Shown: in pieces, positions 2,321 to 19,283 of the stretch | Layout of the letters: each line of letters opens with the position of its first letter | Numbering within the stretch: position 1 is the stretch's first letter | Virus genome (UHGV): UHGV-1601451 | Origin: a virus | Strand: one strand, 5' to 3' | Length of the DNA: 19,283 bases | Made by a program: the position numbers and the translations under genes | Notes under the pieces: model-generated | The model's input: the letters and a program-made list of their open reading frames with translations, nothing else | Databases searched by the model: none | Told to the model about the DNA's origin: nothing

Positions 2321-2770
2321 ATGTCGAGCATAATATACTACAGCTCTATAAATAATGCATTTTACCCTGAGCATTTGAAACAAGAATATATTAAATCTAA
2401 TTCTTTTCCAGCAGATGCAAAACCCGTTAAATATTCTGTTTTCGAAGAATTTGCACTTAAACCAGCACCAGAAGGAAAATACAGGTGCGTTGGTGAAGAT
2501 GGAATGCCATCATGGGCAGATATTCCACCACCAACACATGAGGAACAGATTGCCGCAGCCGAATTGAAAAAGCAGCAATTGATTAACCAGGTCAACGAAT
2601 ACATGAACAGTAAACAATGGCCCGGTAAAGCGGCTATTGGTCGTCTGAAAGGTGAGGAACTGGCGCAATATAATCTGTGGCTGGATTACCTGGACGCACT
2701 GGAAATGGTCGATACTTCCAGTGCTCCAGATATTGAATGGCCTACGCCTCCGGCAGTTCAGGCCAGATGA
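2321..2770 (+). CDS. tail fibre assembly protein (Tfa/U'-like), cognate to the alternative fibre tip
   Basis: MSSIIYYSSINNAFYPEH...DTSSAPDIEWPTPPA has a typical Tfa N-terminus and the conserved C-terminal D-T-S-x-A-P-D-x-x-W-P motif. AAGGA SD 7 nt upstream of the ATG at 2321. The track ORF begins at a TTG at 2297. Confidence 0.8.
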   Translation: MSSIIYYSSINNAFYPEHLKQEYIKSNSFPADAKPVKYSVFEEFALKPAPEGKYRCVGEDGMPSWADIPPPTHEEQIAAAELKKQQLINQVNEYMNSKQWPGKAAIGRLKGEELAQYNLWLDYLDALEMVDTSSAPDIEWPTPPAVQAR

Positions 2771-3344
2771 CATCTGGCGCGGTGCTGGTATCAGTTGCCG
2801 TCACCGCGTCAATGTAATCCAGCACAGCGTTAAGGCGGGTTGTTTCTGTCTGCGTCAGTTTACGTCCGGCCTGCAATTTCAGTTGAATCAGACTGATGGA
2901 AGCCATAGCAGCATCAATCAGATACTGGCGCTGTGCTTCTGCCGCTTCTACTGCGGCGCTATGCTGTGCCTCAGTATCCGTCACCCATTTCTCACCATCC
3001 CATTTATCGTATGGCGTTAATGGGGCGATAGTGGTTGTATTATCAGGGTAATCACCCGGAGCTGTGATTTCTTTTGATTCTCCTGTTTCGGTGCTAAAGA
3101 CGATTTCACCGCGATGGTCTGGCACATATTCCCATGAGTTAAAATCTGCAGAACGGCAGATTGCATAACCAGCTTTGTATGCGCCTGGAGCATCTAAACA
3201 GGAACATGCCGGAATGCCGACACCAACGGCAAGATATTCAGTTGATATGGAAATATATTCCCGTGTTTCACCATCATAATTATAGACAGTAATATTCCCC
3301 GCCTTCGTGGCAATAAACTCGCTATTTAATACAGCGCTATCCAT
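2742..3344 (-). CDS. tail fibre assembly protein (Tfa/U-like), cognate to the currently expressed fibre tip
   Basis: 200 aa ending ...LDYIDAVTATDTSTAPDVIWPELPEA, the conserved Tfa C-terminal motif. Start ATG overlaps the fibre stop (TAATG). Its 3' end overlaps the convergent Tfa' gene by 29 nt. Confidence 0.85.
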   Translation of the reverse strand: MDSAVLNSEFIATKAGNITVYNYDGETREYISISTEYLAVGVGIPACSCLDAPGAYKAGYAICRSADFNSWEYVPDHRGEIVFSTETGESKEITAPGDYPDNTTTIAPLTPYDKWDGEKWVTDTEAQHSAAVEAAEAQRQYLIDAAMASISLIQLKLQAGRKLTQTETTRLNAVLDYIDAVTATDTSTAPDVIWPELPEA

Positions 3345-4099
3345 TATGCAGCCCTCACAATGTAGTTAAATGCGATGTTGCGTGGACGGACACCGAAATA
3401 AGAAGTAACACCATTCATTGTCAAATTTCCAGAGCCAAAAGCGGTAAAACCAGAACCAGCATTAACTGCCGAATCCGCGTTTCTGACAAAGTTTTTGGGA
3501 GGTGAACCGGAGACACCAGCCGAAATATCATCAGCATTACCGCCATTGCCGTGGTGGTTAGTTATCTTTGTTTCCGCCTGCGCCGTCAACAAACCTCGTC
3601 CAGAGTCAACCCCGCGCCCGTCATCCCAGCCGCGAATAAACTCACCACGTAAATCAGGCAATTTATTTGTCGGATAAGCCTTTGCCAGTTCCGGGTATTC
3701 TTCAGCAGAAAAAGCCGCGCCGTTGCATTTCAGCCAGCCTGTTGGCGGAGTGGCGGAAGGCCATGGAACAGGGACACCAACGGGTAATGCAGAGCCTTCT
3801 CCCAAACCAAGGTTTTCGAGAGCCGTTTTCACCGTGCCATCCGATTTGATATCACCAAACGGATTCTTGCGGCTTAACAGCAGCGCACGAAGCGCGGTAA
3901 GCAGCTGGTCGTGCCGCGCCTTCTCCAGGCTGGCACCGGATGCCTCCACAACACTGCAAAGTTCCTCCTGCAACATGTCAAAGTAGTCATCATCCAGATC
4001 GGTGGCAGGTGTGCCGTTCTGGGGGTTACCACGGGTAAAACCGTTCTTACCCGCGCCGAACTTATCCTTCTGCGCGGTTTTCGTATCTATACGATGCAT
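3344..4099 (-). CDS. tail fibre protein: constant N-terminal part fused to variable tip carrying a phage tail-collar domain
   Basis: 251 aa. GGAG SD 6 nt upstream of the ATG at 4099. The tip downstream of the crossover site has PVGVPVPWP...[24 protein letters not shown]...[12 protein letters not shown], matching the tail-collar fibre domain signature. Crossover site lies inside the gene at 3797-3822. Confidence 0.9.
3797..3822. repeat. gix/hix-like 26-bp recombination crossover site (left site), inside the tail-fibre gene
   Basis: TTCTCCCAAACC-AA-GGTTTTCGAGAG. Near-palindromic 12-bp half-sites resembling the TTnnnnnAAACC half-site of Gin/Hin systems. 15 bp are identical to the inverted right site. 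Confidence 0.8.
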
Positions 4100-15442: not shown

Positions 15443-16648
15443 TTACGCCGCTGCAATCTTCAGCAGTTTGATGGCCTGCGAATCGACCAGCATCCCGCCG
15501 GTGCGCTTGGTGGTATAAAAACCGACAAACGGTTTATTGGTGTACGGGTCACGCAGAATGCGGGTGCCGATACGGTCAACGATGGTGTAACCCCGTTTGA
15601 AGTTACCAAATGCAATGGCTTTCGCATCAGCGGCGATATCCGGCATCTGTTCGTTTTCAGCGATACCGTAACCCGCCAGAGAGGACGGCTGCCCCAGTTC
15701 CAGCCCCGGACGCCACAGATAGTTACCCTCGGTGTCTTTCAGCAGACGGATGGCAAACAGGCTGTTGTTGTTCATCATGAACTTCGCGCCAGTGCGGTGT
15801 GCCTTACGCAGCGTGTAAATCAGTTTGATAATGGCGTCTGCGGTCACCGCGGTCGCTTCGCCGGATACAATATGCTGAAGTTTGCCGAACGCCCGGACCT
15901 TGTCGGTTTCATCAGTGGATTCATACGCCAGGAACCCTTTCGGCTTCTTGGTGCCATCGCCTGAGGTAAAGGCAATTTCTTCCTGTTCGGCAAATTCGGT
16001 TGCCAGCTCGCTGTTGATCCAGGCCTCCACGTTGAAGAAGGCATCGTCCAGCATTTTCTGGGTAGCCTGCGGGTTGCCGTAGATTTCCCCCATGAGAGGT
16101 TCAATCAGCTCCAGTCTGGAGGTGGCAGTCTGGGCTCGCGTATCCGTTTCCCCCACCCATCCGGAAGCCGTACCGCCCAGATTCACCAGTTTTTTGTAGT
16201 CGGAACCGCCAACGGTGATCACCGTGGCTTCCTGACGCATCACCACTTCATCTTTCAGCAGGTTAAGAATGTTGCGATCCAGTTCTTCCGGCACGGCGTA
16301 GCCACCGTCTTCATCGGTACCCACCTGCAATGCCTTACGCTCCAGATCGCGCAGACCGTCTTCACGGCCTTTACGCAGGAAGCCCACAAACGCCTCTTTA
16401 TGCTCGGTGGCCAGTTTATTTTGCGCTCCACCTGCCGGACGTTTCAGCTCAAGCAGCTCTTTTTCAAGGTCGCTTTTGAGATTTTCCAGCTCGCTGAGTT
16501 TCCCGTTCAGGGTTTCCACCTGCCCGGCAAGCTTGCCTTTTTCCTGCTCAATCGCATCCACGCGCTTGTCGTTCTTTGCTTTGAAGTCGTCAAACTTCTG
16601 CTGCAGCTCCTGCGCGACCTGTTCCACATCTTTAATATCAACCGCCAT
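15443..16648 (-). CDS. major capsid protein, HK97 family, with N-terminal coiled-coil scaffolding (delta) domain
   Basis: 401 aa. The N-terminal ~100 aa is a charged heptad-rich coiled coil (DIKDVEQVAQELQQKFDDFKAKNDKRVDAIEQEKGKL...). The C-terminal part resembles the HK97 fold core. AGGAG SD 7 nt upstream. Directly downstream of the prohead protease. Confidence 0.9.
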   Translation of the reverse strand: MAVDIKDVEQVAQELQQKFDDFKAKNDKRVDAIEQEKGKLAGQVETLNGKLSELENLKSDLEKELLELKRPAGGAQNKLATEHKEAFVGFLRKGREDGLRDLERKALQVGTDEDGGYAVPEELDRNILNLLKDEVVMRQEATVITVGGSDYKKLVNLGGTASGWVGETDTRAQTATSRLELIEPLMGEIYGNPQATQKMLDDAFFNVEAWINSELATEFAEQEEIAFTSGDGTKKPKGFLAYESTDETDKVRAFGKLQHIVSGEATAVTADAIIKLIYTLRKAHRTGAKFMMNNNSLFAIRLLKDTEGNYLWRPGLELGQPSSLAGYGIAENEQMPDIAADAKAIAFGNFKRGYTIVDRIGTRILRDPYTNKPFVGFYTTKRTGGMLVDSQAIKLLKIAAA

Positions 16649-16662
16649 CGTATTTCTCCTGA

Positions 16663-17313
16663 TTAGAAGTTCAGATTTTTCAGTGCATTCAGTGCAGAGC
16701 CCACATCCTCAGCGTCGCGCAGGGACAGTGCGCCATAGCCCCCGGCCATGAATGCTTTGGCCTGGGTACGGGAGAGTCCGACATCACGCAGGACTCTTTC
16801 GATTTTTTTCTGTTCGGGGATTTCCCCGCGGGCCAGTGCGTTCTTGACGTCGCTGATCCGCGCCTCGTCGTTAGACGGGAACGTCACCAGGCTGACTTCC
16901 CAGAGGTCGATTTCTTTCAGCAGAAAGGCTTCTTTGCTCCGGTCGTATTCCCAGTCTTTCAGGACGTACCCAATAGAAAGGCCGGTTAACGAACCGGCCT
17001 TCATGTGTGCATGTGCGCGTTTTGCGAGGGGATCATCATCAATAAGCAACCGTCCCCTGACGTAAAGCCCGACATCGTCTTCCTTCATTTCGGTGTAAAC
17101 ACCGATGGGTTCATCCATGCGGTGCTGCCAGAGCAGCGCAGGTAACGCTTTTCTGTCACTCCACGCCCGCAGGGAAGCAGCAAATGCCCCGGACATCACC
17201 ACATCATCGTGGCTGTCCTTTACACCAAAGACGGAGCCATACCCTTCAAACTCACCGGAGTCACTGACAGATTTCAGACTCAGCGGTACATCAAGACGTT
17301 GTTTCGTCTGCAT
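16663..17313 (-). CDS. prohead protease, HK97 family
   Basis: Protease-like sequence between portal and capsid genes. Start at the ATG at 17313 (AAGGA SD 8 nt upstream) preferred over the track start at 17349, which lacks an SD. Confidence 0.85.
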   Translation of the reverse strand: MQTKQRLDVPLSLKSVSDSGEFEGYGSVFGVKDSHDDVVMSGAFAASLRAWSDRKALPALLWQHRMDEPIGVYTEMKEDDVGLYVRGRLLIDDDPLAKRAHAHMKAGSLTGLSIGYVLKDWEYDRSKEAFLLKEIDLWEVSLVTFPSNDEARISDVKNALARGEIPEQKKIERVLRDVGLSRTQAKAFMAGGYGALSLRDAEDVGSALNALKNLNF

Positions 17314-18532
17314 TGGCGTTATCCTTCTGCTTACCGGCTTTACTGCCATCGGAGGGTTTCGTGGTCATGTTCATCGGTGTGAGATAGACATCACCACCGG
17401 GACGTGGATTCATATCTTCCAGGTCGCGGCAGTCATTGGGAGAGTAAATTCCCCAGTTGATCCCGGTGGCGTAGGCTTCAAAACGGGACTTCATATCCCC
17501 GCGCAGTAACGCCCCGGCGTTAAATTTGGCGTAATAAACGCCCTGCTTACTTTTTCGTACCAGTCCGGTGTTGATCCGCTGTTCGATGCGGGTCAGATAC
17601 GGCACCAGTGAATAGTTGATAAATCCCAGCCCCAGCTCTTCGATATTGTTGAAGGTGGCGCGATCGGTGTTCTGCACCATGTGCAACGGCACCCGGAACA
17701 GACGACAGATTTCTTCAAGCTGAAACTTGCGGGTTTCCAGGAACTGGCTGTCCTCGGCGTTCAGCGCCATCGACTTCCAGTCCAGCCCCATCTCAAGGAT
17801 CATCGGGCGGTGAGCATTGCCAAGCCCGGTGTGACGCTCCTCAAAATCTTTCTTCAGGCGCTCATAAGCCTGATCTGACAGCGTCTGCTCTGTACGCAAC
17901 ACACCCGACGTCACCGCGCCATTGCTGAACAGTCTGGCCCCGTGCTCTTCGGTCGCTGCCGCCAGCGATATTGCCTCGCGGGCATAGGCGATGGGATTCA
18001 GCCCCACCAGTCCGTCCAGCGTCAGCGTGCGCACATGCCAGATATCCTCTTGGCTCAGTACATCCGTGGAGCCATCCGGGAATGTGACCTGATAGACCGG
18101 CTCCCAGCTACTGTTAAGCTTCGGTACCACACAGCCGGGATCGACGGGCAGCAGTTCAGCCACTTCGCCAAATGCTTTCACTTTGTAGGCGTAAAAGTTT
18201 CCCCGCAGGCACAGACAGGTGACCACCAGCTCCCAGAACTCCTGCGGCGTCATATAGCCATTGGGATGCGTGGAGATCAGCTTATGCAGACGTTCGCCAG
18301 TGGCTCTCTGCTTCAGGCTGCCGTTCAGGTGATACAGGTTGCAGGGCAACATCCCGACCGACTCCGCCAGCACCCTGACACAGGAAAAAACCGCCGTCAG
18401 TCGCATGGCCCGCTGGCTGCTGATCTGCTTTCCGGTATAGGTGTCGTAGGACAACCCGATAGCATCCGCCAGCTCTGCTGGCGTGGTCACCGGTGCGTCA
18501 CTTTTTCGTTGAAATAATCCCGAAAAGAACAC
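17291..18532 (-). CDS. portal protein, HK97 family
   Basis: 413 aa with N-terminal FFSGLF...AMRLTAVFSCVRVLAESVGMLP, typical of HK97-type portals. GTG start at 18532 with GGAGG 6 nt upstream, overlapping the stop of the small membrane ORF. Confidence 0.9.
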   Translation of the reverse strand: MFFSGLFQRKSDAPVTTPAELADAIGLSYDTYTGKQISSQRAMRLTAVFSCVRVLAESVGMLPCNLYHLNGSLKQRATGERLHKLISTHPNGYMTPQEFWELVVTCLCLRGNFYAYKVKAFGEVAELLPVDPGCVVPKLNSSWEPVYQVTFPDGSTDVLSQEDIWHVRTLTLDGLVGLNPIAYAREAISLAAATEEHGARLFSNGAVTSGVLRTEQTLSDQAYERLKKDFEERHTGLGNAHRPMILEMGLDWKSMALNAEDSQFLETRKFQLEEICRLFRVPLHMVQNTDRATFNNIEELGLGFINYSLVPYLTRIEQRINTGLVRKSKQGVYYAKFNAGALLRGDMKSRFEAYATGINWGIYSPNDCRDLEDMNPRPGGDVYLTPMNMTTKPSDGSKAGKQKDNANADETTS

Positions 18533-18714
18533 TATTTACCTCCGCCGACAGACGACTGTGTACGGTCGAGATATCGCGCCACCAGCCACGACCAGAACAG
18601 GCACAACGCCCCGGCAACAACAAACCCCGCCGGGGGATAAATCAGCCAGGCACCATACGCCAGCAAAAGCGCCCCCAGCACGCCCACCAGAGGCGCGAGA
18701 ATCAGCATGATCAT
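18532..18714 (-). CDS. small integral membrane protein (60 aa, two predicted TM helices)
   Basis: [26 protein letters not shown] / [23 protein letters not shown]: two hydrophobic helices. GAGG SD 5 nt upstream of the ATG. Exactly fills the gap between the terminase stop (18726) and the portal start. Confidence 0.6.
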
Positions 18715-18725
18715 AATTACCTCAG

Positions 18726-19247
18726 TTAAAGCGAGCGGATCCCATAGGACTCAATGTGGTCAGACAGCGTGTCTTCTTTCTCGTACAGCATGGCTCTGCC
18801 AACCGCCATAATCAGCGCAACTGCACCATCGATTTTGTTTTCCGCCTGCTCTTTGACGGGCTTCACCACATCATCGTTACCCGGAATGGTTTTGCCGACC
18901 ACGTTGCCTATACACCAGGTCATGATGGGATTGCCATCATGATGAAAGCGCCCCGATTCAATTGCCGCTTCCAGCTCTTTCATCGGGTCGGACATGTTGG
19001 TGTAGTTCTGAATGATAGTGACGGGATTCAGGTCTTCATCAGCAAGGTCATGTGACAACCCGGTCGCCCCGAAGGGGTCGATGGGTGACTCACTGACCGG
19101 GCTGATTTTGTTCGCCGCTTTGGCCTCCTCGAGGATATAGCGATAATCCACCTCCGCACCATCGGTAACGGTCAGAACGCCCATTTCCACCCATTTCTGA
19201 AAGCGTTCGGCTGTCCGTCGATCTTCATTTTTCTCGACGCTGTACAC
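18726..19247 (-). CDS. terminase large subunit, C-terminal (nuclease) part only; N-terminal part lost at the contig end
   Basis: ...[52 protein letters not shown]..., the terminase nuclease-domain region with acidic residues. The first five codons of the track ORF (MYKRQ, 19248-19262) are encoded by adapter sequence and are not real. Confidence 0.85.
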
Positions 19248-19283
19248 CTGTCTCTTATACACATCTCCGAGCCCACGAGACAG
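19248..19283. other. Illumina Nextera / Tn5 mosaic-end adapter sequence (library artefact)
   Basis: CTGTCTCTTATACACATCTCCGAGCCCACGAGAC matches the Nextera read-2 adapter over 34 bp, followed by AG. It is at the very end of the window. Confidence 0.9.

Follow-up and report, generated by a model that had tools for sequence, protein, structure and literature searches.

In Escherichia coli K-12 the gene ymfR, catalogued since the 1990s, lies in the defective prophage e14 between remnants of the genes for terminase and portal, and its translation is exactly the protein encoded by a 60-codon ATG open reading frame (ORF) at 18532–18714, on the minus strand, between the large terminase (TerL) and portal genes of the virus genome UHGV-1601451; this stretch of 19,283 nt, taken at its full length, is referred to below as the window. 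Several described phage proteins resemble the product, YmfR, in some respects and differ from it in others. HK97 gp15, an inner-membrane superinfection-exclusion moron, is like the predicted YmfR a small inner-membrane protein from an operon of virion-structure genes; the gp15 gene, however, belongs to the tail region and the prophage expresses it, whereas ymfR is coupled to the portal gene and induced with lytic genes, and HK97 has no ymfR. Class II holins and the pinholin S21 share with YmfR two transmembrane helices, a length of ~60–70 residues and a basic C terminus, but YmfR is encoded outside the lysis cassette and shows no profile similarity to S21. Lambda gpW is like YmfR only in its position between the large terminase and the portal, YmfR being hydrophobic. 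The pair formed by gp40 and gp20 in T4, where gene 40 is not adjacent to gene 20, offers a loose functional analogy only to YmfR and its portal. In that system gp40 aids portal assembly at the inner membrane (PMC9958956). Finally, the ORFs of PHROG 7105, present in the phages SfV and Dina, occupy the same slot as ymfR and have the same size, two helices, a Shine-Dalgarno (SD) sequence and a stop overlapping the portal start; the profile similarity between PHROG 7105 and PHROG 502, the family of YmfR, is weak (E=5.7e-6), and the PHROG 7105 ORFs lack the Y-P-P-A-G turn of YmfR and go with portals of another subfamily; the SfV record leaves its ORF unannotated.

The window product is 100% identical to K-12 YmfR (e14 prophage; YMFR_ECOLI), and an exact-sequence look-up gave the entry "Uncharacterized protein YmfR, YMFR_ECOLI" for 1000 contigs or more. 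Residues 1–55 of the 60 match the profile phrog_502 ("membrane protein") with E=2.5e-28, and PHROG places PHROG 502 in the category 'moron, auxiliary metabolic gene and host takeover'. YmfR gave no Pfam or NCBIfam match above noise and no related solved structure in the PDB (best E=0.61), and the full-text literature searched contained no functional study of ymfR or of PHROG 502 entries. The entity is thus already known, as K-12 ymfR, phiP27 L37 and PHROG 502, and since it is already catalogued our finding adds no new one. The cross-phylum synteny and portal coupling reported below, for which we found no description in the literature searched, are modestly interesting.

Coding status and layout of ymfR

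Our analysis established ymfR as a real protein-coding gene. Each of the 19 related enterobacterial loci recovered carries it, 18 of them with an intact frame, and in pairs with unsaturated synonymous divergence the pairwise ratio of nonsynonymous to synonymous substitution (dN/dS) was 0.13–0.45 for ymfR versus 0.04–0.12 for the portal gene; ymfR is therefore under purifying selection, looser than that on the structural genes. Conservation and dN/dS were among the checks that the earlier note on this DNA had named for the ORF. Variable sites of ymfR fall at codon positions 1, 2 and 3 in the numbers 20, 12 and 33, and the core Y-G-A-W-x-x-Y-x-P-A-G is constant over 65 distinct DNA sequences, its Gly, Pro, Ala and Tyr residues appearing in all synonymous codons. 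In the viral set Y-x-P-A-G was itself the search pattern and only the upstream Y-G-A-W is unbiased there; a pattern-free profile search recovered the same Y-G-A-W/P-A-G motif. The earlier note had also considered a spurious ORF in a GC-rich spacer, a reading that can appeal to a short, hydrophobic product outside any Pfam family and to a GC content of 61%. Selection (dN/dS below 0.5) and deep conservation reject it, as the family counts 384 representatives, codon positions are biased and the conserved core varies in its synonymous codons; its probability is negligible.

Two further candidates at this locus were tried and rejected. A 78-residue antisense ORF (18493–18729, plus strand) is not conserved and is broken in diverged relatives, and an RNA element instead of a gene found no support, the fold of 18520–18740 being no better than that of shuffles (z=0.41). 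By scan, two terminator-like hairpins lie inside ymfR, and the SfII record annotates a rho-independent terminator there; neither the structure nor the T-runs are kept in diverged homologues, and the hairpins are by-products of Gly, Ala, Pro, Leu and Phe codons. Separately, in Shigella flexneri SFBU0723 one ymfR copy (CP182557.1, 3001–3216; locus L013) has lost 1 nt, so that the frame is shifted after Pro27 and the product has 71 residues, while the second copy in the same genome (locus L008) is intact; some 71-residue YmfR variants also occur as singleton clusters.

The locus is laid out as follows.

18726–19248, minus strand: large terminase gene, 3' part, encoding the nuclease domain of TerL (PF20441 TerL_nuclease), truncated by the contig end
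18719–18723, minus strand: Shine-Dalgarno sequence GAGGT of ymfR, 4 nt upstream of the ATG, within the 11-nt spacer
18532–18714, minus strand: ymfR coding sequence, 60 codons and TAG, identical to K-12 YmfR, PHROG 502
18640–18711, minus strand: predicted transmembrane helix 1, residues ~2–25, with small-residue positions G11, G14 and G21
18625–18639, minus strand: tight turn Y26-P-P-A-G30, the family's most conserved motif, predicted to face the periplasm
18568–18624, minus strand: predicted transmembrane helix 2, residues ~31–49, with conserved G35, C38 and W41-S-W43
18535–18567, minus strand: variable polar/basic C-terminal tail, residues 50–60, predicted cytoplasmic
18539–18543, minus strand: portal Shine-Dalgarno sequence GGAGG, within ymfR codons 57–59, 6 nt upstream of the portal GTG
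17291–18532, minus strand: portal gene of HK97 type (PF04860 Phage_portal, E=4e-108), GTG start

The earlier note had described a 60-codon ORF with its own SD in the terminase–portal gap, start and stop abutting the neighbours, and both statements were confirmed; it left the strand unmentioned. The TerL stop TAA (18728–18726) is separated from the ymfR ATG at 18714 by the 11-nt spacer CTGAGGTAATT, whose GAGGT is unchanged in all close relatives and reads GAGGC in diverged ones. At the other end ymfR closes with GGC GGA GGT AAA TAG TG, where its stop TAG (18534–18532) and the portal start GTG (18532–18530) have one G in common (TAGTG). A purine-rich SD occupies the portal-SD site in 19/20 compared sequences, the Mangrovibacter locus (L011) having GGGAGAT. 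The last YmfR codons, Gly-Gly-(Lys/Glu/Asp), are invariant because they serve at the same time as the portal ribosome-binding site.

The product has a grand average of hydropathy (GRAVY) of +1.22, with hydrophobic blocks at about residues 2–25 and 31–49 flanking the Y-P-P-A-G turn and a polar tail at the end. AlphaFold2, run with a 53-sequence alignment, gave helices at 2–25 and 27–56 with a mean predicted local distance difference test score (pLDDT) of 78.6. Hydropathy and structure prediction thus bear out the description of the product in the earlier note as two hydrophobic helices plus a short polar tail. YmfR displays the hairpin with the family core G-x2-G ... Y-G-A-W-x-x-Y-x-P-A-G-[FY], and from the positive-inside rule we infer that both termini are cytoplasmic and the Y-P-P-A-G turn periplasmic.

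Family range and linkage to the portal gene

When 1.84 billion cluster representatives were searched exhaustively with the profile, 384 family representatives (50% identity) passed the cut-off of E<=1e-3, nearly all of them 45–110 residues long and sharing the G-x2-G motif; 53/53 sampled distant members matched PHROG 502. A word-indexed search started from a distant subfamily yielded over 1500 clusters at the 90% identity level, each of them either unnamed or called "hypothetical". Among the matches listed there was no fusion of YmfR to portal or TerL, the longest being a 122-residue apparent tandem duplicate. The family is widespread, covering Pseudomonadota and Actinomycetota.

The slot is conserved over this range. 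The order TerL–ymfR–portal was found in all 16 loci returned from species-representative genomes, and on 80 IMG/VR contigs with distant relatives a PF04860 portal followed in 46/46 testable downstream ORFs while TerL preceded in 34/34 testable upstream ORFs. The portals on these contigs are mostly 27–40% identical to the window portal, with a single exception at 82%, and YmfR homologues 30–50% identical occupy the same slot beside diverged portals in several phyla; in prophages of Bradyrhizobium, Sphingomonadales and Streptomyces, independent gene calls gave this arrangement too. Enterobacterial and most viral loci also have the overlap with the portal start (TAGTG, TAATG, TGATG or a 4-nt overlap) and a purine-rich SD in the last codons of the small gene. 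From E. coli to Streptomyces, ymfR is hence tied to the portal by overlapping translation signals, and this small membrane protein is one of the most stably placed accessory genes in HK97-type head modules.

Besides, ymfR stays with the portal gene when the terminase is exchanged, as seen in four mosaic cases. In the Serratia loci TerL is 40% identical to that of the window, the portal 73% and YmfR 52–66%; some E. coli prophages cease to be homologous 15 nt into TerL; in SfV the TerL 3' region is 94% identical and is followed by a different 53-residue two-helix ORF and a different portal; and the Streptomyces prophage terminase is of another type, Terminase_6N. Compared with phiP27, identity over ~18380–18745 is 93–98%, from 30 nt before the end of TerL through the whole of ymfR to nucleotide 150 of the portal gene, with flanks at ~77% (~75–80%), and this high-identity stretch looks like a recombination patch.

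The small gene is optional among HK97-type phages. HK97 itself, without ymfR, has TerL joined directly to the portal. A ranking of 2059 portal tblastn matches was sampled at even intervals for 15 phage records; a small two-helix ORF occupied the slot in four (Vibrio K233, Mycobacterium KashFlow gp5, labelled "membrane protein", Ralstonia Dina and Pseudomonas phi_D3) and none did in the other 11. The phi_D3 ORF has no detectable similarity to YmfR. Absence of ymfR is met only at large evolutionary distance. In phi_D3 (PP944329, 1227–1549) the 54-residue two-helix ORF after TerL has its stop overlapped by a GTG from which the portal frame is open, and the annotated portal start (1549) looks ~50 codons too late.

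Possible roles of YmfR

Because ymfR is translationally coupled and linked to the portal gene, we tentatively propose, as the likeliest of the roles considered, that YmfR acts late and at the inner membrane in support of portal or prohead function. YmfR would insert in the cytoplasmic membrane with its two termini on the inner side and the Y-P-P-A-G turn on the outer side, would be made only in lytic growth and, through translational coupling, in a fixed ratio to the portal, and could tether or chaperone the nascent portal or place translation of the late mRNA at the membrane; alternatively, it could improve head assembly or packaging in some other way. Its contribution would be to improve assembly without being essential to it. 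The earlier note reasoned that membrane proteins are not canonical components of head assembly, to which the T4 portal initiator, assembling on the inner membrane with the help of gp40, is a counter-example (PMC9958956). As to expression, mRNA of K-12 ymfR rises by 4.5 log2 together with other e14 lytic genes under an SOS-inducing drug (PMC10012262); the SfII gene order is Q, then lysis genes, then terminase, and there is no promoter-like site upstream of ymfR on the coding strand, where the spacer is only 11 nt long.

Several observations weigh against a portal accessory. Very little of YmfR is exposed, namely a 5-residue turn and a variable tail about 11 residues long, so that a soluble portal would find little surface to bind. 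HK97 and 11/15 of the sampled PF04860 phages do without the small gene, which therefore cannot be generally required. The M-x-G-L-F motif at the portal N terminus also occurs in portals without the small gene; since uncoupled portals share it, it gives no co-occurrence signal and is not evidence of interaction. Moreover, ymfR evolves faster than its neighbours, as the dN/dS values above indicate, and the fixed position and coupling could merely reflect a permissive slot inherited with the portal. A stronger form of the proposal, in which YmfR family members are dedicated membrane partners of HK97-type portals, coupling puts the nascent portal or the late mRNA at the membrane, and prohead initiation or packaging is membrane-associated, as in T4, in a large set of HK97-like phages from several phyla, is on balance unlikely. 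We know of no membrane step for HK97-type heads; such a step, if it exists, would have gone unnoticed because HK97 is without the gene and because automatic annotation often passes over it or labels it wrongly. Were a portal or packaging role true, it would point to a membrane step in a lineage of capsids whose assembly is usually described as free in the cytoplasm.

Some of the same evidence can be read as that of a late membrane effector acting on the host and not on the capsid, its adjacency to the portal gene being historical; candidate actions are to exclude superinfecting DNA in the lytic cycle, to adjust membrane potential or the timing of lysis, or to inhibit a conserved host membrane protein. 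The most conserved residues lie in the bilayer and the periplasmic turn, which suits an intramembrane target or self-association over binding of a cytoplasmic portal, and the optional presence of the small gene among HK97-type phages, its evolution at a faster rate than the structural genes, the fact that we found no co-variation with the portal and the PHROG category all point the same way. On the other hand, the same slot and stop/start coupling from Enterobacteria to Streptomyces would be unusual for a host-directed accessory gene, none of 53 family members matched PADLOC defence models (E<=0.01), and deletion of K-12 ymfR is reported to be phenotypically neutral (PMC9145139). We regard a host effector, the main rival reading, as possible but doubtful; if true, it would be a very widespread one. 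The neutral deletion also speaks against the suggestion, made in the earlier note, of a moron embedded in the head module, that is, an independently transcribed insert expressed from the repressed prophage to the benefit of the lysogen. A small membrane protein inside a structural operon and the PHROG category label would fit such a moron, but this reading was not supported: no promoter-like site precedes the gene, the upstream spacer is short and the stop overlaps the portal start, the terminator-like hairpins are internal to the ORF and not conserved, and the GC content at third codon positions (GC3) of ymfR, 0.69, is near the 0.63–0.68 of its neighbours (portal 0.68, TerL 0.63, capsid 0.64). 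Nor is presence patchy, as ymfR occurs in SfII, SfIV, SfI, ST64B, phiP27, e14 and all related loci recovered, and the mRNA is co-induced with the e14 lytic genes; a moron is highly improbable.

For a holin, antiholin or pinholin-like lysis protein, also raised in the earlier note, one can cite a class II-like architecture with two predicted transmembrane helices, a predicted N-in/C-in topology and a basic C-terminal tail, together with the start Met1-Ile2-Met3, which superficially resembles a dual start. This role is nevertheless very unlikely because the near-identical phage SfII, whose YmfR is identical, has a complete S-R-Rz/Rz1 cassette elsewhere, right after Q at 37.5–38.8 kb, with ymfR at 2.36–2.54 kb, after TerL. 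The gene is ~2.4 kb downstream, between TerL and portal; the M-x-M start is not conserved, hhalign against S21 pinholin, the single holin compared, gave a probability of 0.7%, and the same slot is used in phages of both Gram-positive and Gram-negative hosts. The coupling itself could also be the whole function if the short ORF were a translational relay that reloads ribosomes after TerL for the portal start, the peptide being incidental. The SD of its own, the portal SD in the last codons and the conserved stop/start overlap agree with a relay, and so does the C-terminal Gly-Gly-(Asp/Glu/Lys), taken as invariant only because of the SD. Yet amino acids are kept while synonymous codons vary freely at many positions, dN/dS stays below 0.5, a two-helix hairpin with the same motif recurs across phyla, and HK97 couples TerL to portal without any relay, which makes a relay quite unlikely.

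Annotation in other genomes and remaining features of the window

Among the matches listed, 15 records are 95.8–99.5% identical to the 2.3 kb around the ORF, including Escherichia vB_EcoM-720R4 and vB_EcoM-689R6, Shigella SfIV, SfII and SfI, and Salmonella ST64B; the Shiga-toxin phage phiP27 is 83% identical over this region. The ORF is labelled "putative integral membrane protein" in SfII (SfII_03) and phiP27 (L37), is Sb3 in ST64B, and corresponds also to gp3 of phiKO2. In RefSeq E. coli genomes the label is "ymfR: protein YmfR", with a stretch matching the query in 1610/5426 complete genomes and the same slot in all E. coli rows examined. We conclude that ymfR is a gene of an SfII/SfIV/e14-type contractile-tailed prophage. 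It is tractable, as E. coli K-12 carries it and so do plaque-forming phages of Shigella, Salmonella and Klebsiella.

Several reference genomes miss or mislabel the gene, which is unannotated in PY54, as is its PHROG 7105 counterpart in SfV, and is named "protein W" in some records. In Yersinia phage PY54 (AJ564013, 2295–2492) a 65-residue YmfR homologue (PHROG 502, E=1.7e-17) occupies the 190-nt 'gap' that separates terminase gene 2 from portal gene 3, overlapping both. Four GenBank records (ON470603, ON470584, ON470580 and PQ793804) call the ymfR ORF 'head-tail joining protein W'; we rejected this lambda gpW label as a positional mislabel, since gpW matches phrog_75 (2.9e-36) and YmfR matches phrog_502, with no cross-match. 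In Shigella phage SfV (U82619.2) the unannotated 53-residue two-helix ORF lies at 2262–2423 on the minus strand (PHROG 7105, E=3e-22); the annotated portal start of SfV is probably too far upstream, and the GTG after AAGGGGGA, inside the last codons of the small ORF, is likely to be the actual one. Two records attributed to Firmicutes carry the locus, namely JAEWTL010000102.1 ('MAG: Bacillota bacterium'; locus L005), whose terminase–ymfR–portal proteins are 96–100% identical to those of an E. coli prophage, and OR844959.1 ('Enterococcus phage Efm 3-10'), with terminase–ymfR–portal DNA 92.5% identical to an E. coli prophage; both probably reflect contamination or mis-binning.

Taken as a whole, the window corresponds to a prophage head and tail region, which reads on the minus strand; it includes tail sheath, baseplate J protein and a Pin-type invertase in addition to the following head genes.

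16663–17349, minus strand: prohead protease gene (PF04586)
15443–16648, minus strand: capsid gene (PF05065)

At its upper end, 19249–19283 is the Nextera transposase adapter CTGTCTCTTATACACATCTCCGAGCCCACGAGAC, which marks the end of the contig as an artefact of the library; the GTG at 19262, seemingly where the terminase ORF begins, is not a real start, and the adapter sequence by itself also gave matches to unrelated phage records. Towards the other end, the Pin-type serine invertase (Resolvase and HTH_7) is encoded at 1327–1917 on the minus strand, with tail-fibre and tail-fibre-assembly genes adjoining (2742–4099), an arrangement that hints at an invertible segment for host range, such as e14 and Mu have.

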